A stretch of 64,000 bases of DNA from an uncultured bacterium (GTDB lineage Bacteria > Krumholzibacteriota > Krumholzibacteriia > LZORAL124-64-63), in NCBI GenBank assembly GCA_963732385.1, contig CAVSZB010000005.1, forward strand, positions 1 through 64,000, written 5' to 3'. The translations under genes were made by a program, and so were the position numbers. Numbering within the stretch: position 1 is the stretch's first letter; every line of letters starts with the position of its first letter. Below the pieces are notes generated by a model that saw only the letters and a program-made list of their open reading frames with translations, was not told the origin of the DNA and ran no database searches. Positions 35,400 through 51,899 of the stretch are shown one piece after another.

Positions 35400-38300
35400 C
35401 TACTGCCCCATATTGGCCGGCAGCCTGAACTGCGCGAAGAAGCCGGGGGCGAACGGGTTGTCGCGGGAGCGCGGCTGCAGGTCGTAGCTGGCCGGCTGGC
35501 TGTGGCCGCTGCCGTCCTCGAGCGCCCACTCCAGCCGGTAGAGGCCGCCGTCCTGGGGCGTGACCGTGGCCGCATCCAGCAGGCGGAAGAGGGACCACAC
35601 CCCTTCCTGTGCGTTCTCGGGCTCCGAACCGTCGCTCAGGTGCAGGGCGATGCGGGCCGCCTGCACGCCCCCCAGGTCCGGCCACTGGTACGGCCACCAC
35701 TTGCGCCCGCCGCTGCCGCTGGAGTACTCGAGCGAGGCGCTGTTGCCGATCTTGAGGCTCGAGTACTGGGCCGGCGGCGTGACCTGGCGCGGCCGGATGT
35801 CGAAGGCGAGCCGCGGTTCGTCGGCGTTCTCGAGGCCGAAGGCGCGGCGGATCGCCGCCGCCGCGTCGAGGGCCAGCTTCAACTCGGCGCCGAGTCCGGC
35901 GTCCCCGCCGCCCGCGCCGCCGCTGCCCGACGCCGCGTACTGGGGCAGTTCGCGGTCCACGAACGTCTTGAGCGTCCCCTTGACCCCGCCGAAGAAGCGC
36001 CCGAACTCGTCGACCGTCACGTCGACCCGGCTCGTGCGGTCGAAGGGATACTTCGACGCCAGCGACCGGTACGGCTCGAGGACCTGCCGCTGCCACGATT
36101 CGTCGAGCCGGCTGAACGACTCGCCCCGGCAGGCCCGCAGGGCGATCTGCGCCGGGCCGCGCAGGTACGCCCGGAGCGCCTCGTTGCTGGCCGTCTCGCC
36201 CCGGCGCGACGACCCGCAGAACCGGTTGGCGATCCCCTGCAGGTGCCCGAAGACGTGGTCCTCGCTCTCGGGCTTCTGGTCGATCTCGCGCGTCATCTCG
36301 AGCGCCCGCCGCCCGGTGTCGCCGGCCCCGCGCAGCTCGGCGAGCTTGGCCGCCAGCTTGGTGAACATTTCGCGGTAGTCGCCCGCCCGGCTCCCCTCCG
36401 GTCCGACGTCGCCCGCCTTCTTCACGAAGGCGCGCAGCGTGGCGAAAGCGGCGTCGATGTCGAGCAGACGGGAGTACGTGACGCGGTCGTCGCCCTTGAG
36501 CTGGCTGTCGAAGTAGACGTTGCGTTCGACCTCCTGCAGCAGGCGGTAGAACGGCGAATCGTCCCGCGCCAGATCCTCGAGGCGGTCGACCGTCTCCATG
36601 AGACCGCCCTGGCGCGACACGGCCACGGCGCTCAGGAAACGGTTCCAGCGCTCGACGTACTCGCGCGCGTACCAGGAGAGGAAACTGGACGGATCGGCAG
36701 CATCGCGTCCGGCTCCCCGCAGGTCCGCCATCAGCCAGGCCGGCAGCGGCTGGTTGCCCGTCCTGGCCAGCGAGGCCCGGATCCGCTCCCAGCCGCCGAG
36801 GGTGAAAGCCCCCTCCACCCGCGGTCCCTCCGACGCACCGTCGGCCGCGACCAGCAGCAGCGGCGCCCCCGGCACCGAGGCCAGCGTGAACGGGCCGGCC
36901 TCGTGACTGGCGGCATCGATCAACGCCGAGAACAGCCGGTCCTCGCGCGACGACGCCTCCCAGAGACCCCGGAGGCGATAGGCCAGGTCGCTCGACGGCG
37001 CCGTGCGCCAGGCCGCCAGATCCTCCTTGTGGGTCCAGGTGTAGGCGACGTGCTGCTGGATCAGCGTCAGCAGTTCGCCGCCCTCCCCGCCGCCGCGGCC
37101 GGTCCACAGACGCCCGAGCTGGCCGGCCAGCAGCGGCGCCTCGCCGAGGGAGGGATCGCAAAGCATCCGGTAGGCGACATACGGCTCGTAGAAGGCGTCC
37201 CATGCTGACCGTGACTCCGGCGCGGCGAGCCGGCGTTCGAGCTCGTCGCGACTGGGCACCAGCAGCGCCCGCGCCAGACCGTCGACGTAGCGACGGCGGG
37301 CCTGCCGGTTGAGTTCGCGCCCCTGGTAGAGGCCGAGTCCGAGGCGGAAGCCGGCGCGCGCGTCGCGCGCGTCGAGCAGCTCCAGCTGCCGGCGCAACGG
37401 GTCGAGCTGCTGCAGCTGGACGCGCAGATCTCCGGGCGAGCGCGGCGTGACCGGATCGGCCCGGTAGTCGAGCGCCACGCGCTGCGTTTCGCGCAACAGC
37501 CGGCGATTGCCCACGAACGACGACAGCATCCAGACGCCGCACAGCAGCAGCCCCAGGCCGGCGGCGGCGGCGCCCAGCAGGTGCATCCTCCGGCCCCGCT
37601 GCGTCGCGCCGGCGGTGGGGCGGGCGATCGCGCGATCGGGGATGATCACGTTCAGGAACAGGTTCGCCAGGAAGCTCGGAGGGGTCTGGCCCGCGCCGGC
37701 GACGGGCCCGCCGCCGCCGCCGCTGGCGAAGTAGAGCCCGCGCAGCAGCGGGCCGTGCTCGAAGCTGCCGGTGGCGAACAGCCCCTTCACGCAGTGCCGC
37801 AGGCGGTCCCGCAGCGCGTGGAACTCCAGCGGGAAGAGGTAGATGCCGCCCAGCGGCTCCGGGCGCAGCTCGCGCACGAGCCGCGGCATCCGCCGCTTCA
37901 GGAGAGTGTGGTACAGGAGCTGGAACTCCTGGTCGAACAGCTTTTCCGGCGTGGTCTGCGCCATCAGGGCGCCGCTGAGCGTCGCGCCCCAGATCTGGTC
38001 GCGCGCCGCCCCCGACAGATCGCCGAAGAACTCCCCGAAGCCGCGGATCAGGTCGATCTTCGTCACCACGACATAGACGGGGAAGACCAGGCGCAGGTCG
38101 CGGCTGAGGTCGTCGAGGCGCCGGCGCAACAGCTGGATCTGCGCCTCCAGCCGCGCGCCGTGGCCCTGGCTGAGCTCCTCGGCGGAGATCGTCACGACGA
38201 CGCCGTTGAGGGCCGGCTGGCGAATCTTGCGGAGCTGTTCGAGAAAGGCGCTCCAGTCCCGCTCCGTGGCCTTGTCCTGCGCGGGATCGGCGAAGCGGTG

Positions 38301-38846
38301 ATCCGCCTCCAGCACGACGGCCTGGTTCGTGAACCACCACTCGCAGTGGCGCGAGCTGCCGATCGCCTTCATGTCGCCCGCCTGCCGACCCGGCACGCGC
38401 AGGCCGGAATGGCGCACGAGCGTGCTCTTGCCCGCGCCGTCGGCGCCCAGCACCATGATCCAGGGCAGGGCATGCAGGGCCGCGCCGCCGGCCACGCCGC
38501 CGGCCACGGAGCTCCGCTTCAGCGCGGCGAGCGCCGCCAGCAGTTCCTGGCGGGCCGCCTCGCGCGAACGCTTCTGGTCGTCGCCGGCGTCGGCCACGCT
38601 GGCGTCCGCCTCGCGGATCAGCGACACCTCGACCTGCTCGGACTGCTTCCGCCGGCGCAGGATCAGCACGAGCTCCACCGCCAGCGCCACGACCACGATC
38701 CCGATGATGAGATAGAGGCGCAGATGGCCGGTGATGCCGAAGCGGCCGCCCAGGCGCAGCAGCAGCGCCACCAGCGCCGCCGCCACGAGCAGGACCACGC
38801 TCTGCGGGTGGAACAGGATCTTGAAGATCTTGGCGATGATGTTCAT
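35400..38846 (-). CDS. tssM: Type VI secretion membrane subunit TssM/IcmF
   Basis: N-terminal TMs, PWIMVLGADGAGKST, CEWWF, LNGVVV, FPVYVVVTKIDL, LRGLYFAS, YPF, WSLFRLLD. Confidence 0.92.
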   Translation of the reverse strand: MNIIAKIFKILFHPQSVVLLVAAALVALLLRLGGRFGITGHLRLYLIIGIVVVALAVELVLILRRRKQSEQVEVSLIREADASVADAGDDQKRSREAARQELLAALAALKRSSVAGGVAGGAALHALPWIMVLGADGAGKSTLVRHSGLRVPGRQAGDMKAIGSSRHCEWWFTNQAVVLEADHRFADPAQDKATERDWSAFLEQLRKIRQPALNGVVVTISAEELSQGHGARLEAQIQLLRRRLDDLSRDLRLVFPVYVVVTKIDLIRGFGEFFGDLSGAARDQIWGATLSGALMAQTTPEKLFDQEFQLLYHTLLKRRMPRLVRELRPEPLGGIYLFPLEFHALRDRLRHCVKGLFATGSFEHGPLLRGLYFASGGGGGPVAGAGQTPPSFLANLFLNVIIPDRAIARPTAGATQRGRRMHLLGAAAAGLGLLLCGVWMLSSFVGNRRLLRETQRVALDYRADPVTPRSPGDLRVQLQQLDPLRRQLELLDARDARAGFRLGLGLYQGRELNRQARRRYVDGLARALLVPSRDELERRLAAPESRSAWDAFYEPYVAYRMLCDPSLGEAPLLAGQLGRLWTGRGGGEGGELLTLIQQHVAYTWTHKEDLAAWRTAPSSDLAYRLRGLWEASSREDRLFSALIDAASHEAGPFTLASVPGAPLLLVAADGASEGPRVEGAFTLGGWERIRASLARTGNQPLPAWLMADLRGAGRDAADPSSFLSWYAREYVERWNRFLSAVAVSRQGGLMETVDRLEDLARDDSPFYRLLQEVERNVYFDSQLKGDDRVTYSRLLDIDAAFATLRAFVKKAGDVGPEGSRAGDYREMFTKLAAKLAELRGAGDTGRRALEMTREIDQKPESEDHVFGHLQGIANRFCGSSRRGETASNEALRAYLRGPAQIALRACRGESFSRLDESWQRQVLEPYRSLASKYPFDRTSRVDVTVDEFGRFFGGVKGTLKTFVDRELPQYAASGSGGAGGGDAGLGAELKLALDAAAAIRRAFGLENADEPRLAFDIRPRQVTPPAQYSSLKIGNSASLEYSSGSGGRKWWPYQWPDLGGVQAARIALHLSDGSEPENAQEGVWSLFRLLDAATVTPQDGGLYRLEWALEDGSGHSQPASYDLQPRSRDNPFAPGFFAQFRLPANMGQ

Positions 38847-38916
38847 GGCCCTCCGCCACGCCCCGGGACGTCCGCTGCGACCGCGCGGCGCCGCCTGCGC
38901 GCCGCGTCGCGCCCTC

Positions 38917-39600
38917 TCAGCGCAGCAGCGCGAGCGCCTTGTGCGCCGCGCCGCCGATCATCAGGCGCAGGATCACGTACAGGACCAGCAGCCCGCCCGC
39001 GCCGCCGGCCACCGCCCACCAGAGCGGGAAGCCGCCCGCTGCGCCCCCCGCCGGGTTGTCGCGTCGCTTGCCGTTGGGCGCGAGCCTGATCTCCCGCCGG
39101 TCGCGCGGGTCGTAGCCCAGCTCGCGGCGGATCTCGTCGACCAGCGGCCGCAACTGCTCGCGCCCCGCCACCCGGTACTGCCCCTCGAAGCCGAGCGTCA
39201 GGCAGAGGTGGTAGATCTCGAGCAGGTCGTGCTTCGCGTCGCCGCCGCGGCGCACCTCGGCGAGGTTCGTGAAGAAGCGCGTGCCGGCGAGCCTGTCGCC
39301 GAACAGCTGATGCTGCAGCGGATTGGCGCGCCACAGTTCGCGGTGGTCCCAGTTCGAGCCGAGGATCGTCTCGTCGATGAAGGCCACCAGCGGGTACTTC
39401 ACGGCCTCGATGTCGTCGCGCCCGAAACCGGCTTCGAGCCCCTCGCGCTCGAGGCCGGCCAGGTGGCTCCTGATGCTCTGGCGCAGCGCATCCTCGCTGC
39501 CGTAGTTGCTGCTGTCGCGCAAAGAGAGGATGACGCCGAACAAACCGGTGGCGAGGTCCTGCAGACTGCGCCGCGGTCGGACCTGCTGCGCCCGTTCCAT
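38917..39600 (-). CDS. tssL: TssL/DotU family protein (no OmpA domain)
   Basis: KYPLVAFIDE, W...PLQ...AGTRFF, EIYHLCLTLGFEGQY, C-terminal TM. Confidence 0.92.
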   Translation of the reverse strand: MERAQQVRPRRSLQDLATGLFGVILSLRDSSNYGSEDALRQSIRSHLAGLEREGLEAGFGRDDIEAVKYPLVAFIDETILGSNWDHRELWRANPLQHQLFGDRLAGTRFFTNLAEVRRGGDAKHDLLEIYHLCLTLGFEGQYRVAGREQLRPLVDEIRRELGYDPRDRREIRLAPNGKRRDNPAGGAAGGFPLWWAVAGGAGGLLVLYVILRLMIGGAAHKALALLR

Positions 39601-39622
39601 GCCGCCACCCCCCTGGCTTCTC

Positions 39623-40978
39623 TTACTGCATGACGACGAGTTCGTAGGTGAGGCCGCACAGGTCGTGGCTGCCGGTGTAGATGGCCAGCGAGCGCCCCTC
39701 CACGATCGTGTCCCAGATCTCGCCCCGGGACTCGAGCTTGAAGTACGTGCGTCCAACCTTCAGCGGGAAATTCCGCGGCGGCACCGGCACGTGGACCGGC
39801 ACCACGCCGGGCGTGGCGGTCCGCACCAGGAAGTCGATGTTGTGCGGGCTGCCGACGATCACCTGCACCGGGACCTCGTCGCGGACACGCGCCTCCGACA
39901 GTTCGCCGCTCACGCCCAGGAACCACTGGACCGACGGCTCGAACAGACGCTCGTCGGCGCAGGTGCCCACGAGCACCCACTCGTCGCGCGGGGCGAGCGG
40001 GATGGCGGTGACGAGCTGGGGAATGCCCTTCTCGAGCAGTTCGCGGATGGTCCGCTCCAGTTCGCCGAACACCGGGCCGAGGTTCTCGTGCTGGTAGGCC
40101 GGCAGTTCGCGGGGGCTCCGGTCGACCACGAACGTGCAGAGCGCGCCCGCCAGCTGCGCCAGCGTGAGGTACGCCGGCAGCGGGTGGCCGCGCGGATTGC
40201 GCTGGTGGTGCGCCAGCAGAGGGACGAACGAGTTCGCGGTGTGCAGCAGCCAGAAGTGACCCACGTCGGCGGTGCCGAAATCGACCAGCCCGCCCCCGCG
40301 CTGCCGCGTCCCCTCGCTCAGGTAGGCGCTCTTGGTCACCAGCGTCTCGAGCAGGAAGCGCATGATGCCGGGCAGCGGACCGGCTGCCGCGATCGTCAGG
40401 CTCGGCGGCGCATAGTCGCGCGCGAGGATGAACCGGCCGTCGCTGGCGCGTTCGATCTCGGCGATCTTCAGCACGACGTGACCGGCCAGGTTCTCGCCGC
40501 CGAAGGCGAGCTTCAGATTCAGGCGCGAAACGACGATCTCGACCTGCTTGCCGGGGTCGTTCTCGTCGATGACCCGCACCACATCGCCGAGCTGGCGCGT
40601 TTCCGCGGCGCCGGTGCGCTCGGGCAGGCGGCAGAGCGGCACGCCGGCCCGCTCCTCGGGCGTGGCCAGGAACACCTCGAACCGCGTCTGGTCGGGACCG
40701 AACGCCTCGTTGAGCGGCCGACTGGGCGGCAGCGGGTCGACGGCGGGCGCGCGCACGATGCCGCCGTCGGGCAGGACGGCGTCCACCTCCAGCAGGGTCA
40801 GGCGGCCGTTGCCCAGCGCCTCGGTATCGATCTGCAGCGAGCGGACGCCCCAGGCGAACGGGATCAGGGCGTCCTGCCGGAACTGGATCTCGCCGAGCAG
40901 GGCGCGATCCGCCTGCTGGAAATGCTGAGGGCCGAGAAACATGCCCTCCTGCCAGACGACGCGGTTGTGACGGCTCAT
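39623..40978 (-). CDS. tssK: Type VI secretion baseplate connector TssK
   Basis: VVWQEGMFLGPQHFQQ, WGV, LPDG, YAPPSL, YQHENL. Confidence 0.93.
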   Translation of the reverse strand: MSRHNRVVWQEGMFLGPQHFQQADRALLGEIQFRQDALIPFAWGVRSLQIDTEALGNGRLTLLEVDAVLPDGGIVRAPAVDPLPPSRPLNEAFGPDQTRFEVFLATPEERAGVPLCRLPERTGAAETRQLGDVVRVIDENDPGKQVEIVVSRLNLKLAFGGENLAGHVVLKIAEIERASDGRFILARDYAPPSLTIAAAGPLPGIMRFLLETLVTKSAYLSEGTRQRGGGLVDFGTADVGHFWLLHTANSFVPLLAHHQRNPRGHPLPAYLTLAQLAGALCTFVVDRSPRELPAYQHENLGPVFGELERTIRELLEKGIPQLVTAIPLAPRDEWVLVGTCADERLFEPSVQWFLGVSGELSEARVRDEVPVQVIVGSPHNIDFLVRTATPGVVPVHVPVPPRNFPLKVGRTYFKLESRGEIWDTIVEGRSLAIYTGSHDLCGLTYELVVMQ

Positions 40979-41009
40979 GATCGCTGCGGCCCCTTCGTTG
41001 TCCGCCCGC

Positions 41010-41486
41010 TCACGACTTGTCCGCGGTCAGGCAGAGCTTCTCCAGGCGGATGGCGATCCGGGCGGAACCGCCCTCGAGCCTGACCACCTTTTTCCAGCAC
41101 CCCGAACGGTGATCGCAGAAATCCGCCACCACGCCGACGGCCGTCACCCCCTTGCCGCGCGCCAGCTCGAAGATCTGCGCCGGCTCGCCCGGCATGACGG
41201 TCAGCTCCCTGACCGACGCCACGGCCTCGCCCAATGCCCGGCCCCGGTCGTCCCAGAGCCGGTCGAAGGCCGCTTCGCCGAACGCCTCCGCGTCGCGCAG
41301 GCTGTAGATGCGCACGACCACGGCATGATCGGCCGGATCGTCGCACGAGTTCAGGCGGGCCGCCCCCACCACGCTGAAGGCATCCCTGGCGGCGCCGCCC
41401 AGCCCCAGCATGCTGCATCCGCTGACGCCCACGGCCAGGCCCAGGAGCGTCCCCAGCGCCAGCGCCCTACCGATTCTGACCGACAT
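41010..41486 (-). CDS. tssJ: Type VI secretion lipoprotein TssJ
   Basis: Lipobox VSGC; LN...VVVRIYSLRD...F; GVVADF; immediately upstream of tssK. Confidence 0.85.
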   Translation of the reverse strand: MSVRIGRALALGTLLGLAVGVSGCSMLGLGGAARDAFSVVGAARLNSCDDPADHAVVVRIYSLRDAEAFGEAAFDRLWDDRGRALGEAVASVRELTVMPGEPAQIFELARGKGVTAVGVVADFCDHRSGCWKKVVRLEGGSARIAIRLEKLCLTADKS

Positions 41487-41567
41487 CTTCGACTCCTTCG
41501 TGCGCAGCCGCTGCGGGAAGGGCCGGCGCGCGGTCCGTATGACCGGCGCGGCCTCGCCGCGCCAGAC

Positions 41568-42221
41568 TCAGCGGCCTGCGATGCCGGGCGGTGGCGGGAA
41601 GCCCGGCAACGGTCCGGCCGGCGTCGTTTCGCCGTCGCCGCCGCCGCCACCGAGACTCATGGCCAGACCGCCGACCACGCCGACGATCAGCGCGATGCCC
41701 AGCGGCTTGGCGAAGAACGACTTGCCGCCCTTTCCGGTCTGCACCGGCGTCGGCTGCCAGGTCGGCTGCGGCGCGGGAGCGGGCGTCGCGGGCGACACGG
41801 TCGCCGGCGCCGACTCGCTGCGGCAGCCCGCCGCGGCCTGATCGAAGTCCACCTGCTCGTCCCTGGGCAGCACGTCGGCCTCCGGACGCCAGCCGGCGTC
41901 GATCCGGAGCGCCTCGCAGAACATGTCGCGCGCGATGCTGTGATTGCCCAGGTTCACCAGACAACGCGCCTTCAGCACGTAGGCGTCGCGCAGGGCCGCA
42001 CCTTCGAGCGTGCCGCCACTGATGAACTCGTTGCAGATGTCGAGCGCCTTCTGGAAGTCCGCGAAATCATACAGATCCTGGGCCTGAGCGAGTGCCGGAG
42101 TCCCGGCCGCGAGCGCGGCCCCGATCCAGAGCCCGCCCGGAGCCACGGTGGCCAGAAAGGCGATCAGGGTCGCCAGGCCCAGAACCCGAAAAGCGTTGTG
42201 GCGACGGTAATTGCCCATCAT
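41568..42221 (-). CDS. Exported TPR-like protein with C-terminal hydrophobic/Gly-Pro tail
   Basis: Signal peptide, TPR-like helices, KPLGIALIVGVVGGLAMSLGGGGG...PLPGFPPPP. Confidence 0.65.
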   Translation of the reverse strand: MMGNYRRHNAFRVLGLATLIAFLATVAPGGLWIGAALAAGTPALAQAQDLYDFADFQKALDICNEFISGGTLEGAALRDAYVLKARCLVNLGNHSIARDMFCEALRIDAGWRPEADVLPRDEQVDFDQAAAGCRSESAPATVSPATPAPAPQPTWQPTPVQTGKGGKSFFAKPLGIALIVGVVGGLAMSLGGGGGDGETTPAGPLPGFPPPPGIAGR

Positions 42222-42315
42222 CTCCGGTCCCCCCTCCTGATGACGATCTGCAGTCCGGAACGCAGCATCTGACAATCGCCCGCACGGCTCAAGGAAAATT
42301 TGGGCGGCGCAACGG

Positions 42316-44456
42316 TCAGGGCGCCGACAGTTCGAAGCGGATCCGGATCTCCTGGTTCTCGGCCAGCCTGACCTTCACCCGCCCCTCCCCCCCGCGCCGC
42401 GGCTGAAAGTCAGCGCGCCGCCATCGCCCGCGTTCTGGGCGCCGGTCACCACGTAGCCGGGGCAGCGCGCGCCGATCGTGTGCTCGCCCGCCTCCAGCTT
42501 CACCTGCAGGAAGGGGGTCTGCTGGCCGGTGTCGATCCCGTCGATCGTCACGAACGCGGCCGGGGTGGCGGCCACGCGCAGTGAGCCGGTCCGCTCGAGG
42601 AAGCGGTGGTGCCCCAGCGCGAGCGTCTCGCCGGCCGCGATCTGGAAAGCCGGCAGGTCGAGGCGCCCGTACGACGGTCGGTACCGCAAAGAGACGGCGT
42701 GACGCCCGGCGTTGGCGGCCATCACGGCGACCTTCGCCCCCTCCTTGACCAGCTTCCCGTCCAGATAGACGTCCGCGTACGGAGAGATCACCACCCGCGC
42801 GTAACCGCGGCCCGGCGTCGCCGCGACCGTGGCGGAAGCGGCAGGGGGGGCGGCCACCGGTCGTTGTTGCGCCGGCGCTGTCGTGGGCGCTGTCGTGGGC
42901 GCTGTCGTCGGCGCTGTGGTCGGCGCTGTGGTCGGCGGGGTCGACGCAGCCGGCGGCGGCGTCGACAGCGGCGCGTCGACCGGCGCTGCGGGCGCCGGCG
43001 TCGAAACCGCCACGGTGTCCGGCGTCACGCCCGTGCGCGCGAACCGCGGCACGGGAGAGAGCAGGCGGCCGCCGATCATGATCGCCGCGGCGGCCACGAC
43101 CACCAGCACGGCCGCGGCCGCCCAGCGCGAGCCGGGCGAGGCGAACCATGAGCGGAGGCTGCTGCCGGACCCGGCGCCGGCCGTGCGGCCGGCCTTCGGC
43201 GCCGCCGCCTTCGGTTCGGGCGGGCGCGCCCTGCCAGCGGTGCGGGAGGCGGGGGCTGCGGAGGCCTTGGGCATGACGAGCGTGCGGCCGGTGGCGTCCT
43301 CGTCGGCGCGGGCCGGGCGGGCGGCGACGGCGAGGCTCTGGCCCGATTCCTCCGCCCTGCGCTTCAGTTCGCTGATCGCCTCGCTGGCCTTGCTGTTCTG
43401 CGGGTCGAGCGAGAGGACGTAGTGGAACTCGCGGATCGCATCGCCGATGTTCTCGAGCCCCATGTTCTTGAAATGGAAGCCGGCGTTGAGGTGGGCCTTG
43501 ATGTTCTGGTGCCGCAGCTCCTCGGCGAACGCCATCGGCTCCTTGGCGAAACGGGCCAGGTAATCGCGGCGGTACTTGATCAGGGCGCCCGACCGGTCGA
43601 TGCTCTCCATGCACTCCTTGAGCGCCAGCAGCACCTGGTCCATGTTCTGGTAGCGCTTCGCCGGGTCCTTCGCGAGCATCTTCTCCATCAGGGACGAGAG
43701 CTCCGCGGTCAGCAGCGGGCAGGCTTCGCGGGTCAGCGGCGCCGGCGCGTCGTTGATGATCGACTCCTGCACGGATGTCGGCGTGTCCCCCTTGAACGGC
43801 TTCTCCCCGGACAGGAGCTGGTAGGCCATCACGCCGAGCGAGAAGATGTCCGTGCGATGGTCGAGGTCGTCCCGGCCCGCCGCCTGCTCCGGCGACATGT
43901 ACGACGGCGTGCCGACGACCATCCCCGGCAGCGTCAGGTTCTGGGCGGTCAGGCGCGCGAAGTCGCGGGTGTCGCGGGCGAGGCCGAAGTCGGCGATCTT
44001 GATCTCGCCGTCGTTGCTCAGCAGCACGTTGTTCGGCTTCATGTCGCGGTGGATGATGCCGGTCGTGTGGGCGGCCTTCAGGCCGTAGGCCACCTCTTCG
44101 AGGATCAGCAGCGCGATCTCGGCGGGCAGCGGCCGCGAGCGGCCGGCGGCCTTCTGGAAATCGGCGAACAGCTTCTGCAGATCGGGGCCTTCGATGTACT
44201 CCATGACGATGAAGTACATGTCGTCTTCGGAGCCGAAGTCGATCACGCGGGCGATGTTGTTGTTCTGCAGCGAGGAGGCGGCCCGCGCCTCACGCTCGAA
44301 GCGGGCGATGAAGCTTTCGTCTCCGGCCAGGCCGGGGTGCAGGACCTTGACGGCGACCGAATAGTGCAGCGTTCCGTGCAGTCCCCGGTAGACCGTGGAC
44401 ATGCCGCCGGAGCCGATCTTCTCCTTGATCTCGTAGCCGTGGAACGTCGCCCCCAC
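42316..44456 (-). CDS. Membrane Ser/Thr protein kinase with PEGA domains; apparent frameshift in C-run near 42385-42395
   Basis: GSGGMSTVY, HRDMKPNN, DFGLAR, GTPSYMSPEQ; TM; PEGA; plausible C-terminus (KVRLAENQEIRIRFELSAP) in another frame ending at 42316. Confidence 0.9.
42874..42933 (-). repeat. 5 x 12-bp tandem repeat encoding TTAP linker
   Basis: ggcgctgtcgtg/ggcgctgtggtc units. Confidence 0.85.
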
Positions 44457-44490
44457 GTCGCTCCCTCCCCCCTGTGCGGACGCCGTGCTG

Positions 44491-46875
44491 TCAGGTCCGC
44501 GGTTTCCGCTTCAACTGCAGGTCGATCTTCAACCGGTCCCCCTGCGCGATCGTCACGCGGAAGGAGGTGTACTTGCCGCCGGAGCTGAGCGGCGGGAGCT
44601 GTTTCTGGCTGCCGTCGGCGGCCACCTGCGACGCGGTCTGCACGGTGAAGTCGTCGCTGCGGACCGTCAGCGTATGCTCGCCTGGCTCGAGACGGCCCGT
44701 CCACGGCGTGTTGCCGACCCGCTCCTGATCGATGTCCAGCGGGACCGGATCGGTCGCCTCGATAGCCACCTCTCCGCCACTGAGCACCATCTCCAGCCGC
44801 ACGCCCAGGGTCTGCCCGCCGCTGATCCTCACCTTCTTCATGACCGGCGCGTAACCCGGCTTCTCGGCCCGCACCTCCCAGTTGTCCGCCGCGGTCAGTT
44901 CGGTGACCACCGGAGCGGTGCCGACCGGCCGCCACGGCTCCCCGGCCTGGCGCACCAGCACGGTGGCGCCGTCGGGCGTGACGCGCACGCGGATCCGGCC
45001 GCTGGAGCTCACCGCCGGCGCGGCCGCGGCCTCGCTCGGGGTCTCGGCGATCGTGGCCGGCGCCGGCACGGCAGCCGCGGTCCCGGGCGCGCCGGTGGCC
45101 GCGACAGCGGGCGTTTCGCCCTCTCCCTCCGGAACGAGCGCGCGCAGCTGTCCGCCCACGGAGGTCGTTTCACTCCCCGCCGCCGTCACGGCGAGCACCG
45201 TGTCCGCGTACCCCGCCAGCGACAGCCGGAACTCCCAGGCGCCGACCGCCAGGTCCGCCAGCACGCAGGCGGTCTGGCGACCGGTCGGGGTGAAATCGGC
45301 GGTGCCGGCCCGCCGCATCCAGACCTGCGCCCCTGCCGGCTCGCTGGCCACCTGTACGATCGCCGTGGCCGGCGGCGCGGTCGGGCCGCGCCGCGTGAGC
45401 AGGACCGCGGCCACCGCCACGATCACCACCGCTCCGAGCGCCATCGCCACCATGCCCCGTCGCCGGCGCAGCCCCTCCAGAATACCGGCCACGGGCGACG
45501 CGGCGGCGCGATCCGGCCGCGCCTTGCGCGGCTGACGCGGCTCCCGCGGCACACGCGGCGCACGCGGCGGCGGCGGCGCAGCCGCAGCCGGCTCCGGCGC
45601 GGGCGCCGCGACCGGCTCGGCGGCGCGCCGTGGCGGGCCGGCCGCCGGCATGACCATGGTGCGTCCCGACTCCACCGGGTCGGCGGCATCGACATCGTCG
45701 GGCTCGTGCGCGCCGAGCGGACCGGCGCCCGTGGGCGGGGGCGCGGCGCGCATCGTGACCCCTGAATCCTCGGCCCGCTTGCGCAGTTCGGCCAGGGCCT
45801 GCGAAGCCTTCGGGTTGCGCGGGTCGAGGCGCATGACGTGACGGAATTCGCGCAGCGCGTCGGACATGCTGGCCAGGCCGAGGTTCTTGAAGTGGAAGCC
45901 GAGCCGCAGGTGCGAGTTGATGGCCTGGTGGCGCAGATCATTGGCGGTGGCGGCCGGGTCCCGGGCGAAGCGCTGGAGCAGGTCGCGCCGCAGCTTCACC
46001 AGCCCGCCCGACGAGTCGATGCTGTCCATGCACTCCCGCAGCGCGTGCAGCACCTGGTCCATCGACTGGTACCGCTTGCCGGGATCCTTGGCCAGCATCT
46101 TGCTGACCATCTCCTCCATCTCGTTCGTCAGGAGCGGGCACGAGGTCTCGGCCAGCGGACGGGGCGAGGCGTTGATGATGCGCTCCTGCACCTCGGTCGG
46201 GCTGTCGCCCTGGAACGGCTTCTCGCCGGCGAGGAACTGGTAGGCCATGACGCCGAGCGAGAAGATGTCGCTGCGGTGATCGACGTCGTCCCGGCCGACC
46301 GCCTGCTCCGGCGACATGTACGAGGGGGTGCCGACGATCATGCCCGGGCGCGTCAGGTCGTCCGAGGCCATCCGCGCCTGGTCGCCCGTGTTGCGCGCGA
46401 GACCGAAGTCGGCCAGCTTCACCTCGCCGCGCCGGTCGATCAGGATGTTGCTCGGCTTGATGTCGCGGTGGACGACCCCCTCGGCATGCGCCTCGCGCAG
46501 CGCGTACGCCACCTCTTCGAGGATCAGCAGGGCGATCTCGGGCGGCAGCGGCTGGGCCGCGCCGCTCTCGGCGCGCAGCATCTCGAACACCTTGGCCAGG
46601 TCGGGCCCGTCGATGAACTCCATCACGATGAAGTAGCAGTCATCCTCGCTGCCGAAGTCGATGACCGAGGTGATATTGACGCTGCGCAGCGCCGAGGCCG
46701 CCTTGGCCTCCCGTTCGAAGCGCGCGATGAACTGCGTGTCGCCGGCGAGGCCGGGGTGGAGGATCTTGACCGCGACGGGATAGCCCAGCGTCGTGTGGAC
46801 CCCCTTGTAGACGGTCGACATCCCGCCCGCGCCGATCTTCTCGTGCACTTCGAAGCCGTGAAACGCTGTAGCCAC
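44491..46875 (-). CDS. Membrane Ser/Thr protein kinase with PEGA domains (paralog)
   Basis: GAGGMSTVY, HRDIKPSN, DFGLAR, GTPSYMSPEQ; TM; VASEPAGAQV-type PEGA repeats. Confidence 0.93.
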   Translation of the reverse strand: MATAFHGFEVHEKIGAGGMSTVYKGVHTTLGYPVAVKILHPGLAGDTQFIARFEREAKAASALRSVNITSVIDFGSEDDCYFIVMEFIDGPDLAKVFEMLRAESGAAQPLPPEIALLILEEVAYALREAHAEGVVHRDIKPSNILIDRRGEVKLADFGLARNTGDQARMASDDLTRPGMIVGTPSYMSPEQAVGRDDVDHRSDIFSLGVMAYQFLAGEKPFQGDSPTEVQERIINASPRPLAETSCPLLTNEMEEMVSKMLAKDPGKRYQSMDQVLHALRECMDSIDSSGGLVKLRRDLLQRFARDPAATANDLRHQAINSHLRLGFHFKNLGLASMSDALREFRHVMRLDPRNPKASQALAELRKRAEDSGVTMRAAPPPTGAGPLGAHEPDDVDAADPVESGRTMVMPAAGPPRRAAEPVAAPAPEPAAAAPPPPRAPRVPREPRQPRKARPDRAAASPVAGILEGLRRRRGMVAMALGAVVIVAVAAVLLTRRGPTAPPATAIVQVASEPAGAQVWMRRAGTADFTPTGRQTACVLADLAVGAWEFRLSLAGYADTVLAVTAAGSETTSVGGQLRALVPEGEGETPAVAATGAPGTAAAVPAPATIAETPSEAAAAPAVSSSGRIRVRVTPDGATVLVRQAGEPWRPVGTAPVVTELTAADNWEVRAEKPGYAPVMKKVRISGGQTLGVRLEMVLSGGEVAIEATDPVPLDIDQERVGNTPWTGRLEPGEHTLTVRSDDFTVQTASQVAADGSQKQLPPLSSGGKYTSFRVTIAQGDRLKIDLQLKRKPRT

Positions 46876-46897
46876 GCCGCCTCCCTTTTCGTCCGGC

Positions 46898-47671
46898 TCA
46901 GGTCCGACTCTGCCGGGCCACCACGACCGTGATGTTGTCGGGGCCGCCCTCCTTGCGCGCCCGCTCCACGAGGAGCTGGCAGGCGCGCTGGGGCAGGTGC
47001 ATCGAGACGATGCGCAGGATTTCGGGGTCGTGAATCACTTTGATCAGGCCGTCCGAGCAGAGCACCAGCGTGGCCCCCTCGGCGAAGATGACCGGGTTGC
47101 CGATGTCCGGCTCCACGCCCTCCTCGTTGCCGAGCCAGCGCGTCAGGACGTTCGACAGGCTCTGCTTGTCGGGCGGCAGCGTCTGGCCCTGGCGCCGGTA
47201 CTCGCCGCCGAGCGAGTGGTCTTCGGTCAGCGGGAAGAGCTGCCCGTCGTGCGCGAGATAGGCGCGGCAGTCGCCGATGTGGCCGATCACCAGCTCCTGC
47301 CCGCGGACCACGGCGGCCGTGCAGGTCGTGGCCATGTTGGCGCGCAGCGGACTGGCGGCCGCATCGGCGAGGATGGCCCGGTTGGCCTCGAGCAGCGTCT
47401 CGTAGAGGGCCGCCCGCAGGTCGGTCGGCACGCCGGCGGCGAAGAAACGCTCGCCGAAGGTCTGCACCGCGATCCGGCTCGCCACCTCGCCCGCCGCGTT
47501 GCCGCCCACGCCGTCGGCCACGACGAGCAGCAGCGCCCCGGGCGCGGTGTCGCAGGTGAAGATGCCGACCGCGTCTTCGTTCTTCTCGCGCCGGCAGCCG
47601 ATGTCGCTGAGGCTGGCGTGCAGGAGTCGCAGGCCGGTGGCCGGTGACGTCGGCGGGCTGTCGTGGTTCAT
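46898..47671 (-). CDS. PP2C-family Ser/Thr phosphatase
   Basis: REKNED, VADGVGG, HIGDCRAY, LCSDGL, GGPDNIT. Confidence 0.93.
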   Translation of the reverse strand: MNHDSPPTSPATGLRLLHASLSDIGCRREKNEDAVGIFTCDTAPGALLLVVADGVGGNAAGEVASRIAVQTFGERFFAAGVPTDLRAALYETLLEANRAILADAAASPLRANMATTCTAAVVRGQELVIGHIGDCRAYLAHDGQLFPLTEDHSLGGEYRRQGQTLPPDKQSLSNVLTRWLGNEEGVEPDIGNPVIFAEGATLVLCSDGLIKVIHDPEILRIVSMHLPQRACQLLVERARKEGGPDNITVVVARQSRT

Positions 47672-49041
47672 GAGCCTCCTCTGCGACCCGGGAGCGCGAG
47701 GCCCGCCGGACGCGTTGTCCTGCGATAGACGAGCCCGACCGCGCCGCCCAGGAGCACGCGATCGCCTTCGCCGATGGTGGCCGTCCGCACCGGCCGTTCG
47801 TTGACCTGCGTCCCGTTCGTCGAGCGCAGATCGGTGATGATGACCGCGCCCCGCCGCACCCGCAGCACCGCGTGCTGGCGGGAGACCCGCGGCTCCGCCA
47901 CGACGATCGTGTTGCCGGCCGCCGAGCCGATCGTGGCGCCCGAGCGCGGCAGGCGGTGCACGGTCTGGCGTCCGCCGGCCGTCACGACCAGTTCGCCGGC
48001 CGAGGCGAAGCGCAGCCGCGCCAGCACGACCGCCGCGACGATCAGCACCAGGGCCGCCAGCAGCAGCGCCGGCCAGCGGCCGATGCCGCGCTCGGCGAGC
48101 GCCCGGCGGGCGCGCAGCGTGCCGTCGGCCGCGAGCTCGCCGTCGGCGCGCGTCACGCGCAGCGTCACGTCGGCCGGCAGCCCCACGCCCGGCGCGGCAA
48201 ACCGCGCCGCCAGCGCGCCGTCGACGACGGCCACCAGCCGCCGCACCGCCATCCCGGCCTCGCCGGCGCCGGCGGTCAGCAGCCGGCCGCCGCTGCCGTC
48301 GGCCAGGCGCCGCAGCCGCGCCGCCTCGGCGCCCGCCGCGTCGGTATCGCCGAGCAGGACGACGTACACCGCCACCCGGGCCGAGTCGGCGGCCGCCAGG
48401 CAGCTCACCGACGAGTAGCGGCTGCCCTGCCCCTGCCGGCCGCTCGTCACCACGATGAGCGTCCGCCGCGCCGGCAGCTCCGGAAAGGCCAGCACGGCCA
48501 GCGCGTCCTTCACATTGTCCCACAACGGGACCGGCGTGTCGCCGGCGAGGTCGGCCGCGGCCGGCGGGCGGGCCGCTCCCGCGCCGCCGCCACCGCCCGG
48601 CGCCAGCCGCCGCAGCGCCCGCGGACGCGACCCCGTCGCATAGAGTCCGCGCCAGGCGTCGGGCGCGGCCTGCCCCGCGAACGCCGCCAGCGCCTCGCCG
48701 CAGGCCGCCACGGCGTCGGCGGGCAGGCCGCGCAGATCGGCCAGCACCGCCACCGCCGACGGCGCGCCGCCCGGAGCGGGGGCGAACGGCAGCAGCGTCG
48801 GCGCGCCCACCGGCCCGCCGCCCGCCGCGAGCGTCAGCGCCGCGGCCGGCACCGCCAGCGGCAGACCGCCGGCGTCGACCAGCGTGAACGGGAGCTGGTA
48901 CTGCCCGCCCGTCAGCGGCACGCCCGGCTCGAGCCGCAGCTCGGCCGCAACCCCCTGGGCCCGCGCGCCGCCCCCCGGCGCCAGCAGCGCAATCACGACG
49001 GCCGCCGCCCGCAGCGACCGGAATCCGCGGCGTGAAAGCAT
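47668..49041 (-). CDS. Membrane protein: extracytoplasmic degenerate vWA-like domain, TM, cytoplasmic FHA
   Basis: Signal peptide; TPVPLWD...LIVVTSG...SGG; TM; IGS...VSRQHA...DLRSTNGTQVN. Confidence 0.75.
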   Translation of the reverse strand: MLSRRGFRSLRAAAVVIALLAPGGGARAQGVAAELRLEPGVPLTGGQYQLPFTLVDAGGLPLAVPAAALTLAAGGGPVGAPTLLPFAPAPGGAPSAVAVLADLRGLPADAVAACGEALAAFAGQAAPDAWRGLYATGSRPRALRRLAPGGGGGAGAARPPAAADLAGDTPVPLWDNVKDALAVLAFPELPARRTLIVVTSGRQGQGSRYSSVSCLAAADSARVAVYVVLLGDTDAAGAEAARLRRLADGSGGRLLTAGAGEAGMAVRRLVAVVDGALAARFAAPGVGLPADVTLRVTRADGELAADGTLRARRALAERGIGRWPALLLAALVLIVAAVVLARLRFASAGELVVTAGGRQTVHRLPRSGATIGSAAGNTIVVAEPRVSRQHAVLRVRRGAVIITDLRSTNGTQVNERPVRTATIGEGDRVLLGGAVGLVYRRTTRPAGLALPGRRGGS

Positions 49042-49140
49042 GTCCGCGCCGCCCCTCCCCACGGTACGACCAGGTGCGCCGGCGGGAGAATCCCGACCCG
49101 CGTGGCGGAGTCTAAGGCGCGGCGGCGGGCATCGCAATCG

Positions 49141-50934
49141 CTAGTCGACCGGCAGATCGAACTGCTGTGGGCAGCGCATCACCACGGCCGCGGCCAGGAA
49201 GCGCGACACGTACTCCCGCGTCTCCTGCGGCAGACACGGCGCGTCCTTGCGCACGAGGTCCCAGAACTTCCAGCGCGACCACCAGTCGATGTTCATGCGC
49301 CGCAGGCAGGCGCGCAGCCCGTTGTCGCCCTTGTTGTAGGCGGCCACCGCGCACATGCAGTCGTTGGAACCGTAGGCGATCATCAGGTCCTGCAGGTACT
49401 GGCAGGCCGCGGTCGTGGCCCGCACCGGGTCCTTGCGCTCGTCGACGGTGTCGTCGACCCGCAGGCCGTAGTCGCGGGCGGTGCCGCGCATGAGCTGCCA
49501 CATCCCCATCGCCCCGGCCGGACTCTCGATCTCGGCCTGGTAGCCGCTCTCGATGAACGGAAGGTAGCAGAAGGCCTGCGGGATCCCCTGCGCCTCGAGC
49601 TGCGAGCGCAGCATGTCCAGGTGCGGCCGCGCCCGGCGGAGCGTGCGCAGGGTGTAGTCGCGCCGGTCGACCGTCCACATCCGCACGGCGCCTTCCACCT
49701 CCGCCACCATCGTGCCCGGCAGCGCGTCCAGCCGCGTGTCGACCCCGAACTGGGCGAAGATCCGCGACAGCTCCTCTTCCAGGCTGAAGGCCGGCGGCGG
49801 CGGGACGGCCGGCGCCGTCTCCTCGGCCGCGGTCACCTCGGGTTCCGGCGGCGGAGGCGGCGGCGGCCGCCGCCCCTCGCGCAGCTCCTGCAGCAGCGCG
49901 AACGGATCGCGGTCCCGCAGCCGATCCCGGTCGATCCGCTTGGCGGTCTCGCGCAGCGCCTCCCGCACTTCGTCGTCGCTCTGCCGGTCGGGCGGCAGCC
50001 GGTCGGCCGCGATCAGCGAGCGGATGGCGATCTCGAACTGCGCCTTGGCCACGGTGTCGTTGGGCGGCGAAGCGTCGTAGGCCACGAGCGCGTCGTCGAG
50101 GCTGCGCCGCGCCTGCTCGACGTACATGTCTTTCGTCCAGAGCCGCTCCACCCGCTCGCCCGCCGGCCGCAGCGACGGCAGCAGCAGCACCCCCACCAGC
50201 ACCAGCGCCGCGATCCCCAGCACCATCGCCCCATGCACCGAAGGCACGGGACACAACTGCACGGTGAAGACGACATCGGCGAACCCGACCCGGTCCCCCA
50301 CCCGCAGTACCCGCTCCTTGACCGCCTCCCCGTTGACGGAAGTGCCGTTCCTGCTCCCGGCATCGGTGAGCAGCAGCCGGTCCCCCCGCCGCTCGATCCG
50401 CGCATGCACCCCCGAGATCTGCGCCAGCGGCAGCAGCAGATCGGCCCCCTCGTCCCGCCCGATCACGCTCAGCTTGCGCGCCAGCAGCAGCGAGGCTCCG
50501 CCCGCCCGCGTATCGCGCGACACCAGCCGCAGACAGAGCAGCCCCGCCGGATCAGGCAGCCGCCGCCCCGCCCCCCGCGCCCGCACCGGCCGCTCGAGCG
50601 AGAACACGAACTCCCGCTCCGGCCCCAGCCGCAGCACCGCGCCGTCCCGCAACGGCGCCCGCCCCACCCGCTCCCCGTCGACAAAGGTCCCGTTGGCGCT
50701 CCCCTGGTCCTCGACGAACCAGACCGCCCCCTCCTGCACCAGCTGCGCATGCCGCCGACTGAGCGCCGCATCGTCGATACAGAGATCGCACCCCGCATCC
50801 CGCCCGATCAGCAGCCGCCCCCCGGCCGGCACGCACACGTCGGCCCCGCCCGCCCGCGGACGCACCCGCGCCCCGCAGGCCGGCCGCGCCCCCGCGCGCC
50901 CCCCCGCTCTAAGTCCGCCGGAAGTGTCAGCCAT
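49141..50934 (-). CDS. FHA-FHA-TM-lytic transglycosylase (MltD-like SLT) fusion
   Basis: Two FHA (IGR...SRRHA...SANGT; IGR...SGVHA...SRNGT); TM; IESGY...AMGMWQLM...TARDYGL...DERKDP...AAYNKG...ETREYV. Confidence 0.88.
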   Translation of the reverse strand: MADTSGGLRAGGRAGARPACGARVRPRAGGADVCVPAGGRLLIGRDAGCDLCIDDAALSRRHAQLVQEGAVWFVEDQGSANGTFVDGERVGRAPLRDGAVLRLGPEREFVFSLERPVRARGAGRRLPDPAGLLCLRLVSRDTRAGGASLLLARKLSVIGRDEGADLLLPLAQISGVHARIERRGDRLLLTDAGSRNGTSVNGEAVKERVLRVGDRVGFADVVFTVQLCPVPSVHGAMVLGIAALVLVGVLLLPSLRPAGERVERLWTKDMYVEQARRSLDDALVAYDASPPNDTVAKAQFEIAIRSLIAADRLPPDRQSDDEVREALRETAKRIDRDRLRDRDPFALLQELREGRRPPPPPPPEPEVTAAEETAPAVPPPPAFSLEEELSRIFAQFGVDTRLDALPGTMVAEVEGAVRMWTVDRRDYTLRTLRRARPHLDMLRSQLEAQGIPQAFCYLPFIESGYQAEIESPAGAMGMWQLMRGTARDYGLRVDDTVDERKDPVRATTAACQYLQDLMIAYGSNDCMCAVAAYNKGDNGLRACLRRMNIDWWSRWKFWDLVRKDAPCLPQETREYVSRFLAAAVVMRCPQQFDLPVD

Positions 50935-50936
50935 GA

Positions 50937-51899
50937 TCACGTCGCCGCAGGCAGCGGGAAACACCGGAAGAGGAACCGCGTGCCCCCCATCTGCACCCGG
51001 TCACCATCGCGCAGCGCCTGCTCGGTAATCCGCACGTCGTTCACGAGCGTCCCGTTGGTGGAGTTGAGGTCCCGCAGCACGTACTGCCCCCCCCCGAACA
51101 CCACCTCCGCATGCCGACTGGAAAGGAACCGATCATCCCCGATGATGACATCGCACCCCGCCACCGACCCGAAGCGAAGGGTCCCGGCCGTCAACCGAAA
51201 GTCCCGCCCCCGCTGCGCCCCACTGACAGCCACGAGCCACGCCACCAACTCCTGCCGCCCCACCGGACTCATGAGGACAGCCGTCTTGTCGAGATCGTCC
51301 ACCGTCATCGCCCCCGGCGCCGCCACCGGCACCACAGGAGGAGGAGCAGCAGGAGGCGCAGGCGGCACATAGGCCGGAGGAGCCAGCAGGCGCAGCAGGA
51401 GCCGCCGGCGGAATGACCGGCCGCGCCCCGATCACCGTGATGTCATCCCCGCCCCCACCGGGTCCCCCCACCCCCGGCCCCGTCGGCACCCGACGGATCG
51501 GTTCGGAAACCGGCCGCGCCACCGGCGCATGCTCGATCCGCCGCACCGGCTCCGGCGCCCGCTGAAAAGGTTGAGGAGCAGGCGGCACCGCGCCAAGGGA
51601 GGAGGCGCAGCAGGAGCAGCCGGACAGCAGGAGCAGCCGGCCAAGTCGGCGGCCCCGCCGCCGGCGGCAGGAGACGTATAGGCAGGAGCCCCAGCCCCCG
51701 CATGAGGCGCCGGCGGCATCGGCTCCGCCGCCCGAGCCCCCCGCCCCGCCGCCGAACTCCCCCGCTCGTCATCTACAGGGATGAAATCCCCGCTAAGATC
51801 GCTCCCCCCCTCACAATAAGGACAGCTATCCCAAGACGGATCCAGGAGATGCCCGTTCGCACAATGCCGCACCTTGTTCTTCCGCTTCCCGAACAGCAT
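50937..51899 (-). CDS. Zn-ribbon / Pro-rich linker / FHA protein, broken by several apparent frameshifts
   Basis: N-term CANGH...CPYC from ATG 51899; Pro-Ala linker switches frame; C-term LSSRHA...DLNSTNGTLVN. Confidence 0.75.

Follow-up and report, generated by a model that had tools for sequence, protein, structure and literature searches.

A 2026 review (PMC13584744) describes a minimal phosphorylation pathway of type VI secretion systems (T6SS), encoded by tagE (TagE/PpkA), tagG (TagG/PppA) and tagH (TagH/Fha), with its threonine phosphorylation logic of kinase, phosphatase and FHA protein, as well as peptidoglycan remodelling by MltE, a housekeeping lipoprotein encoded outside T6SS loci, or by TagX, an L,D-endopeptidase. 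According to a second report (PMC10781749), the T6SS-iii of Bacteroidota has no homologues of TssJ, TssL and TssM (TssJLM), and a third source (PMC6509490) presents ArnA and ArnB of Sulfolobus, a zinc-finger FHA protein and a vWA protein, as partners in a phosphorylation-dependent complex. Here we analyse a cluster of 11 genes in a 64,000-nucleotide stretch of DNA (the window) from an uncultured bacterium (assembly GCA_963732385.1, contig CAVSZB010000005.1, denoted C5), in which tssJ, tssK, tssL and tssM lie downstream of genes for FHA-domain proteins, a protein phosphatase and two protein kinases. From gene content and homology, the cluster appears to be the membrane-complex and control half of a single, complete, canonical T6SS-i that is split into two blocks; we put the probability of this reading at roughly 0.9.

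The source genome (G000; 3.82 Mb in 9 contigs, 95.8% complete) contains the window as C5:1-64000, with a GC content of ~71%. The label of the host lineage comes from the proteins of close relatives, which carry the name Candidatus Krumholzibacteriia. Genes in the window were picked by third-position GC, and the candidates were then compared with Pfam and with NCBIfam equivalogs at their curated cut-offs; the tail families TssA, TssB, TssC, TssF, TssG, Hcp, VgrG and PAAR were searched genome-wide. Genomes of relatives included G002, from the same genus as G000, and G006, G016 and G032, from differing genera. The family survey covered 91 genomes of the same taxonomic family, and the phylum survey 128 genomes at a completeness of at least 90%.

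A probable single T6SS-i encoded in two blocks

The 11 genes are co-directional, as the sequence-only reading of the window had described them: all are on the minus strand, within 35400-51899, with gaps of at most ~150 nt (Pfam, NCBIfam). The downstream part of the cluster encodes the membrane complex and its connector to the baseplate:

41010-41486, minus strand: TssJ outer-membrane lipoprotein (Pfam T6SS-SciN, E 8.3e-22; TIGR03352, 73.5 bits against a cut-off of 31.6)
39623-40978, minus strand: TssK, connector between baseplate and membrane complex (Pfam T6SS_VasE, E 1e-108; TIGR03353, 343.6 bits against a cut-off of 100)
38917-39600, minus strand: TssL (DotU), inner-membrane anchor (Pfam DotU, E 3.8e-49; TIGR03349, 156.8 bits against a cut-off of 89.95)
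35400-38846, minus strand: TssM (IcmF-like), core of the membrane complex (Pfam IcmF-related_N, IcmF-related and IcmF_C; TIGR03348, 553.9 bits against a cut-off of 388)

The membrane complex of a T6SS-i, TssJ, TssL and TssM, is present in full, by Pfam and by scores over the cut-offs of TIGR03352, TIGR03349 and TIGR03348. The N-terminal hydrophobic stretch of TssJ has a cysteine at its end. TssL lies in an open frame of 38917-39756, with a likely start at 39600 that is inferred from 233-aa orthologues; the protein has a transmembrane (TM)-like segment at its C-terminus and carries no peptidoglycan-binding extension. TssK is the sole match to its family in the G000 genome, as is TssM to PF14331. 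We considered and rejected a type IVB DotU/IcmF pair: IcmF_IVB reaches 83 bits against a cut-off of 1000, and TssJ and TssK adjoin. DotU_IVB scores 63.5 bits on TssL, over its cut-off of 50, yet the general DotU/TssL model scores far higher, at 156.8 bits.

Annotation of C5:64-102 kb places the tail genes outside the window, and those from vgrG to tssA share the strand of the cluster:

C5:89769-90857, minus strand: tssA (Pfam; NCBIfam TssA, 265.6 against a cut-off of 160.85)
C5:89223-89753, minus strand: tssB (Pfam)
C5:87725-89341, minus strand: tssC (Pfam; genome-wide match at C5:88103-89011)
C5:87146-87655, minus strand: hcp (Pfam)
C5:86307-87236, minus strand: tagJ/impE (Pfam ImpE)
C5:85796-86374, minus strand: tssE (Pfam)
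C5:83898-86141, minus strand: tssF (Pfam)
C5:82879-83934, minus strand: tssG (Pfam)
C5:80183-82846, minus strand: clpV (Pfam ClpV-type AAA; NCBIfam ClpV1, 1282 against a cut-off of 885)
C5:77842-80160, minus strand: vgrG (Pfam; NCBIfam VgrG, 638 against a cut-off of 186)
C5:66222-66650, plus strand: PAAR gene (PAAR match at C5:66414-66587)

The genome accordingly encodes the baseplate (TssE, TssF, TssG and TssK), the spike (VgrG and PAAR), the sheath (TssB and TssC), the Hcp tube, TssA and ClpV of a T6SS-i, that is, one complete 13-gene core set in two co-oriented blocks separated by 25.9 kb (from vgrG to the first gene of the cluster, which encodes a zinc-ribbon-FHA protein). TssK, TssC, TssF, Hcp, IcmF-related_N, VgrG, TssB, TssG and ImpA_N have one match each in G000. 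Because these families are single-copy, the tail block lacks a membrane complex and the window block lacks a tail, the two halves must work together. We also rejected an additional T6SS, or an additional membrane complex, encoded elsewhere in G000, given that every searched family yielded one match.

The sequence-only reading had offered two interpretations, a tail-less, stand-alone, phosphorylation-gated channel and a split T6SS-i in an FCB-like lineage. Its observation that the window holds no tail genes is accurate for TssA, TssB, TssC, TssF, TssG, Hcp, VgrG and PAAR, each of which has its single match beyond base 64000. The channel interpretation is refuted by the test that the sequence-only reading had itself set, with a tail block at C5 77.8-90.9 kb and the full tail set on the same contig, 14.5-39 kb from the cluster; the two blocks on one contig support the split system. 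The window ends 14 kb short of the first tail-associated gene, and absence from a 64-kb window is not absence from the genome.

A control module with unusual domain fusions

The upstream part of the cluster comprises the following genes:

50937-51899, minus strand: protein with a zinc ribbon, a Pro/Ala-rich linker and an FHA domain, denoted Zn-FHA (Pfam FHA, E 1.5e-17, in frame 50937-51368; Cys/His zinc-ribbon-like N-terminus from 51899)
49141-50934, minus strand: protein with two FHA domains, a TM segment, a helical linker and an SLT domain, denoted FHA-FHA-SLT (open frame 49141-50964; Pfam, two FHA stretches, E 1.8e-37, and SLT, E 9.1e-21)
47668-49041, minus strand: protein with a signal peptide, a beta domain, a vWA domain, a beta domain, a TM segment and an FHA domain, denoted vWA-FHA (Pfam FHA at 402-464 of the long open reading frame (ORF) 47668-49137)
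46898-47671, minus strand: PP2C Ser/Thr phosphatase (Pfam PP2C_2, E 9.5e-20; NCBIfam Stp1_PP2C, 194.6 bits against a cut-off of 230)
44491-46875, minus strand: Hanks kinase 1, with a kinase domain, a TM segment (472-498) and periplasmic PEGA domains (Pkinase, E 3.7e-50; PEGA, E 1.3e-15)
42375-44456, minus strand: Hanks kinase 2, with a kinase domain, a TM segment (441-470) and PEGA (Pkinase, E 3.1e-50; PEGA, E 2.3e-4)
41568-42275, minus strand: small protein with two TM-like segments (27-57 and 186-212; weak TPR_8 match, E 0.0044, below cut-off)

Judged by its domain content, this control module appears to be an unusually rich, lineage-specific phosphorylation and peptidoglycan-opening accessory set that carries unusual fusions. 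A feature of T6SS threonine phosphorylation, a transmembrane Hanks kinase together with a PP2C phosphatase in the T6SS locus, is present here with two kinases that combine Pkinase and TM segments and one PP2C. The kinases are paralogues, and their genes cross-match at 74% DNA identity in the comparison of G000 with G002. The ectodomain of the well-known T6SS kinase PpkA is a vWA domain. PP2C corresponds to the C-terminal 257 aa of the frame 46898-48523, and its start at 47671 shares 4 nt with the stop of the gene before it; by analogy, the phosphatase may play a role like that of PppA/TagG.

FHA-FHA-SLT is predicted to be a lytic transglycosylase of bitopic build, both FHA domains being cytoplasmic. 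A TM-like segment was identified in its sequence at residues 237-269, and the AlphaFold2 (AF2) model (confidence score pLDDT 88.2) contains FHA domains at 20-113 and 133-231, a helix at 233-255 and an all-helical C-terminal part. Residues E462, S463, G477, W479, Q480, A531, Y533 and G536 of the SLT part, and G159, R160, S174, H177 and N196 of the FHA part, are invariant in 28 of 28 aligned homologues; we take these to be the catalytic and the phosphothreonine (pThr)-binding motifs, respectively. The SLT fold recognised by Pfam and the invariant ES, G-x-W-Q and A-Y-N-x-G positions place the protein among the family 1 lytic transglycosylases, whose motifs are the catalytic Glu-Ser, a G-L-M-Q-like motif and A-Y-N-x-G. 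In a collection of 5.8 billion proteins, 109 passed E<=1e-5, and 42 of these, all within the first 44, carry both FHA and SLT. Those with names are labelled only 'FHA domain-containing protein' and come from Candidatus Krumholzibacteriia, Eisenbacteria (one listed protein with FHA and SLT) or 'bacterium'. A complex prediction for the periplasmic parts of TssM (500-1148) and FHA-FHA-SLT (262-597) gave a score of 0.00 against a mark of 0.32, which weighs neither way.

Recognition of the vWA domain in vWA-FHA depends on structure prediction together with a Pfam match in an orthologue, and the domain assignment of the sequence-only reading holds on this basis. The AF2 model (33 sequences; pLDDT 87.9) consists of a signal-peptide-like helix, a beta domain, an alpha/beta domain at 109-283, a TM helix at 323-345 and an FHA domain at 348-441. 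In a Foldseek search with the N-terminal part, the best matches were the vWA structures 4fx5 (E 3.8e-9), 6fpy, 8s05 and 5a8j (ArnB-paralogue). Pfam VWA does not match the protein of the window itself even at E 5 and matches one of four orthologues (E 3e-4). A full search with hidden Markov models found ~30 full-length representatives of vWA-FHA at 50% clustering, compared with 5 proteins from a word-indexed search with the vWA part.

ARAGORN called two tRNAs in the window, tRNA-Gly at 18243-18336 and tRNA-Ser at 48022-48092; the latter falls within the vWA-FHA gene, and the high GC of the sequence has probably produced both calls falsely.

Zn-FHA is predicted to be a cytoplasmic reader of pThr, and the domains attributed to it by the sequence-only reading are present, in a gene that is interrupted in the G000 assembly (see below). 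For the small protein at 41568-42275, no Pfam match was obtained from a shorter start, and its positional counterpart in G006 shows a weak match to TPR_14 (E 4.2e-4).

A proposed course of assembly

Within the framework of a split T6SS-i, the following course of events can be envisaged. The two bitopic Hanks kinases would sense an envelope cue with their periplasmic PEGA domains and autophosphorylate on threonine, and three proteins, with four FHA domains between them, would read the phosphothreonines. Zn-FHA, as a soluble protein, could then act as a TagH/Fha-like assembly adaptor, FHA-FHA-SLT would bring its lytic transglycosylase to the marked place of kinase activity, where peptidoglycan would be opened for insertion of TssJLM, and vWA-FHA would couple its periplasmic vWA domain to the cytoplasmic relay, which PP2C would reset. 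TssJLM would then assemble, and TssK would dock the TssEFG-VgrG baseplate made from the distant block; finally, TssBC and Hcp would polymerise and fire, and ClpV would recycle the sheath. This scheme builds on observed gene content, domain order, predicted topology, conservation of the presumed catalytic and binding residues, and co-occurrence; its individual steps are putative. The specific role given to FHA-FHA-SLT is tentative, and we consider it somewhat less probable than an even chance.

Conservation of the locus in related genomes

The layout of G000 is retained in G002, with 83% identity in the control/membrane block, 93% in rsgA and the B12 genes, 93.5% in PAAR-DUF2169-PLD and 90% in the tail block. 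Shorter distances between the two blocks, with T6SS cargo as the sole filling, occur in two fully annotated relatives from other genera. In G032, the tail block ends in vgrG and is followed by a divergent cassette of 6.6 kb (DUF6484, DUF2169, a PAAR-like/GHH2 nuclease and a HEAT protein) and then by FHA, FHA-FHA-SLT, vWA-FHA, PP2C and TssJKLM. The two blocks of G016 are 13.6 kb apart, with amidase-like, PLD and PAAR genes in the spacer and a kinase on each side of the control block. G006, G016 and G032 all have FHA, FHA-FHA-SLT, vWA-FHA and PP2C in this order upstream of tssJ. Where TssK and TssC are on one contig, the distance between them is 48 kb in G000, 45 kb in G002, 36 kb in G016, 23.8 kb in G092 (from match coordinates only; the retrieved stretches have 55% GC) and 23.6 kb in G032; TssC and FHA-FHA-SLT of G052 are 11.9 kb apart on one contig. 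G041 and G054, with ~10 kb, TssK upstream of TssC and no FHA-FHA-SLT, represent another arrangement.

The simplest reading of these layouts is that the two blocks stem from one ancestral locus, in which the stretch of cargo genes separating vgrG from the control operon would have become enlarged, and that in this genus it also took up unrelated genes. The spacer series of 6.6, 13.6 and 25.9 kb shows how such growth, on the vgrG side of the membrane-complex operon, can divide a T6SS locus in two.

In the family survey, TssK is present in 20 genomes, TssC in 18 and both in 16. The genomes with TssK only are G006 (95% complete, 70 contigs), G069 (87%, 670 contigs), G091 (a fragment of 50 residues where a contig ends) and G099 (matched at 26 bits), and those with TssC only are G074 and G088. 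At E<=1e-40, FHA-FHA-SLT was detected in 16 of the 91 genomes, all of them TssK-positive, and in none of the 71 that are TssK-negative; TssC accompanies it in 14 of the 16, the two exceptions being draft metagenome-assembled genomes of 70 and 670 contigs. Gene order and this strict co-occurrence support the proposal of the sequence-only reading that TssJKLM is wired to a Ser/Thr phosphorylation module. In the phylum survey, TssK matched strongly in 14 genomes, and all of these except G006 also have TssC (13 of 14).

Evidence against the split T6SS-i and alternative explanations

Several observations weigh against a complete, phosphorylation-controlled T6SS-i, beginning with the interruption of the Zn-FHA gene in the G000 assembly. 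The gene passes from frame 0 to frame 2 and back to frame 0, with a frame 0 stop at 51432-51434; the zinc-ribbon and FHA parts are in one frame and the conserved motif in the middle of the linker is in another. Public data offer little further information on this region: of the words sampled from 50900-52000, each sequencing run contains a fraction of 0.12 at most, and the stretch was found in none of the public RNA runs. On TIGR03354 (VI_FHA), which has a cut-off of 120.25 bits, the three FHA proteins reach 29.7, 67.3 and 43.7, so the adaptor role is assigned by analogy only; these proteins may work like TagH without being members of its family. The phosphosites, kinase substrates and SLT activity of the scheme are putative. 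The locus of the near-closed genome G032 (C1:3628621-3639841; L020) has no kinase gene between PP2C and tssJ, which implies that the kinases are not obligatory and form a variable part of the module. Lastly, G006, which is 95% complete, yielded no match to TssA, TssB, TssC, TssF, TssG, Hcp, VgrG or PAAR.

The broken Zn-FHA gene would fit a T6SS in decay, in which the locus was pulled apart by insertions, function is being lost and Zn-FHA is the first casualty; the two frame changes and the 25.9-kb spacer, with a mobile-looking island of low GC at the junction, speak for such a course. However, compared with the profiles, the 13 core genes and the remaining accessory genes all have open, full-length frames, and G002 has the same split at 83-93% identity, its ORFs likewise preserved. 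One frame change offsets the other, and both coincide with single-base differences in contigs of relatives, a pattern that assembly indels or a very recent change would produce. Specifically, contigs of relatives have an extra base behind 51624 (X4) or lack base 51386 (X2), and either difference restores the phase; each comes from one low-depth contig, among short contigs from four runs. The 280-aa orthologue of G006 aligns to 51899-50952 in a single frame, across the stop at 51432-34. The gene is one intact ORF of roughly 310 aa in locus L015 of a close relative and is intact, at 280-313 aa, in G006, G016 and G032. The data fit an assembly error as well as a real recent change, and the frame changes may be either. 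Decay of the system is a very unlikely explanation.

Core genes are also found in pieces in relatives, TssF in two, TssC in three and ClpV in two (G002, C11:95603-97496; G111, C1:889464-890375; G016, L005:11750-14583). Frame breaks seem to be common in these assemblies, which calls for caution before pseudogenes are called.

Still less probable is a stand-alone channel of the envelope, made of TssJKLM, which Ser/Thr phosphorylation would gate and which would work independently of a tail in this genome. The block is compact, has an upstream region of its own and is closed off by a hairpin, and in G006 the whole block stands beside the housekeeping genes ligA and ackA without the eight searched tail families; against this, a full tail set is located 26 kb away on the same strand with no other membrane complex to serve it, and 14 of the 16 genomes with FHA-FHA-SLT possess TssC. 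We know of no role of TssK except docking of the baseplate.

The G006 locus (C25:3824-18203; L008) comprises the whole FHA, FHA-FHA-SLT, vWA-FHA, PP2C, kinase and TssJKLM block with open, well-conserved ORFs, located between ligA-ackA and unrelated genes, and its TssK and TssM exceed those of G000 in profile score. The contig extends 3.8 kb upstream of the block, and a 13-kb cluster can drop out of a draft bin. A second, weaker match to the SLT part is located at C19:67306-68349 of G006. That blocks of this type are a self-contained evolutionary unit that can outlive the tail, with a tail-independent envelope function in some Krumholzibacteriia, seems improbable. If the tail were truly absent from G006, it would point to a phosphorylation-gated TssJLM-TssK complex with its own lytic transglycosylase and a tail-independent role in some Krumholzibacteriia.

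Another reading, as improbable as the stand-alone channel, takes the FHA, PP2C and kinase genes for a general signalling module of envelope or peptidoglycan remodelling that adjoins tssJKLM without controlling secretion. In NCBIfam, the FHA, kinase and phosphatase proteins resemble most closely the cell-wall signalling proteins FhaB/FipA, PknB and Stp1, in each case below cut-off, and no FHA protein qualifies as a TagH equivalog, yet FHA-FHA-SLT occurs in 16 of 20 family genomes with TssK and 0 of 71 without it, and the gene order upstream of tssJ persists across differing genera.

Flanks, spacer and cargo genes

The split T6SS-i is bordered downstream of tssM by a hairpin and upstream of the Zn-FHA gene by an island of low GC:

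35321-35352, no strand assigned: GC-rich 14-bp hairpin between the convergent tssM and 33441-35291 genes (fold of 35285-35405, -61.3 kcal/mol, z -2.73)
52340-58578, plus strand: low-GC, defence-like island directly upstream of the cluster (GC 0.50-0.68 per gene)
53298-54395: GmrSD_N/NsnA-like gene
54401-55396: RelA_SpoT-like nucleotidyltransferase (weak PADLOC match to PDC-S33)
56069-57769: protein with Schlafen AlbA_2 and HATPase_c_4

The hairpin is possibly a bidirectional terminator. The terminator that the sequence-only reading had placed on one side of the cluster is substantiated as far as a GC-rich hairpin goes; there is no U-tract, and consensus scans found no terminator behind tssM and no convincing promoter. 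The gene beyond the hairpin, 33441-35291, and another at C5:92642-96265 encode large, secreted-looking proteins with an FlgD_ig-type C-terminal domain. In a neighbour gene of G016, a domain of this type also weakly matches the Por_Secre_tail sorting domain. Taken together, these domains suggest type IX-like cargo in this lineage.

On the opposite side, the unrelated island recognised in the sequence-only reading is evident from the drop in GC at 52-56 kb, where two 2-kb windows have values of 0.555-0.564, and from the defence-like genes. In the syntenic region of G002, other sequence is present in place of the 52.0-58.8 kb island of G000. The island is part of the 25.9-kb spacer and not of the machine. 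The Schlafen-like gene is flanked by a direct repeat of 486 nt (55513-55998 and 58093-58578, 97.7% identical, 2580 nt apart). It duplicates the 3' end region of the SIMPL (DUF541) gene, and this duplication looks as if it arose when the Schlafen-like gene was inserted.

The spacer otherwise contains rsgA, B12-methyltransferase genes and cargo. The B12-dependent methyltransferase set extends from 61290-64000 to C5:64980 (B12-binding corrinoid protein, S-methyl_trans, Met_synt_B12-like and MTTB-like) and is 93% conserved in G002. Among the cargo genes, two form an effector cassette with PAAR at 66.2-71.8 kb:

C5:67390-68643, plus strand: DUF2169
C5:68693-71782, plus strand: PLD-domain protein, 1029 aa

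The cargo region as a whole (C5:66222-75784) encodes PAAR, a 276-aa unknown protein, DUF2169, the PLD protein, small PG_binding_1 proteins, a HEAT-repeat protein and two unknowns; these are probably effector, adaptor and immunity genes.

Comparison with known systems

The two blocks document a complete T6SS-i with TssJLM in a Krumholzibacteriia-like lineage. A literature search, with subscription journals outside its scope, found no publication linking Krumholzibacter with type VI secretion and none naming an FHA domain together with an SLT domain. The control module is richer than the PpkA-PppA-Fha set in that a lytic transglycosylase, encoded in the locus, is fused to two predicted pThr readers. 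In model systems, peptidoglycan is crossed with the help of the unlinked MltE or the endopeptidase TagX; a phospho-gated transglycosylase would join signalling to the site of wall opening.

Compared with the T6SS-iii of Bacteroidota (PMC10781749), the system is likewise a contractile secretion system outside Proteobacteria and differs in the presence of TssJLM. A further resemblance is to ArnA-ArnB of Sulfolobus (PMC6509490): in both cases, a Zn-ribbon-FHA protein and a vWA protein are encoded beside Ser/Thr kinases and a phosphatase, and 8s05 and 5a8j are among the Foldseek matches. However, the archaeal pair is cytoplasmic and regulates the archaellum, whereas the vWA domain described here is predicted to be periplasmic (signal peptide, TM helix), so that an ArnA-ArnB-like contact with a cytoplasmic Zn-FHA is unlikely; the resemblance may hold only in parts.

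Other counterparts are the threonine phosphorylation pathways of the P. aeruginosa H1-T6SS and of Agrobacterium, which share with the present locus a transmembrane Hanks kinase, a PP2C phosphatase and an FHA protein. Here, in contrast, the kinases are two in number and carry PEGA ectodomains in place of vWA, the vWA domain resides on a separate, FHA-bearing membrane protein, and three FHA proteins are present, none of which exceeds the TagH cut-off. The locus shows neither tagQRST nor tagF, genes for which no genome-wide search was made.

With the Proteobacterial T6SS-i (tssA-M), the system shares all 13 components in single copy, with equivalogs over cut-off for TssA, TssH, TssI, TssJ, TssK, TssL and TssM; it differs in its division into two blocks 25.9 kb apart and in its Krumholzibacteriia-like host, as labelled from the proteins of relatives. 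With MltE of EAEC and TagX of Acinetobacter (PMC13584744), it shares a peptidoglycan-cleaving enzyme, in the present system a predicted one, whose catalytic domain is periplasmic and associated with the membrane complex, whereas here the candidate enzyme is a lytic transglycosylase encoded in the locus itself and fused, through one TM helix, to two predicted cytoplasmic FHA domains.

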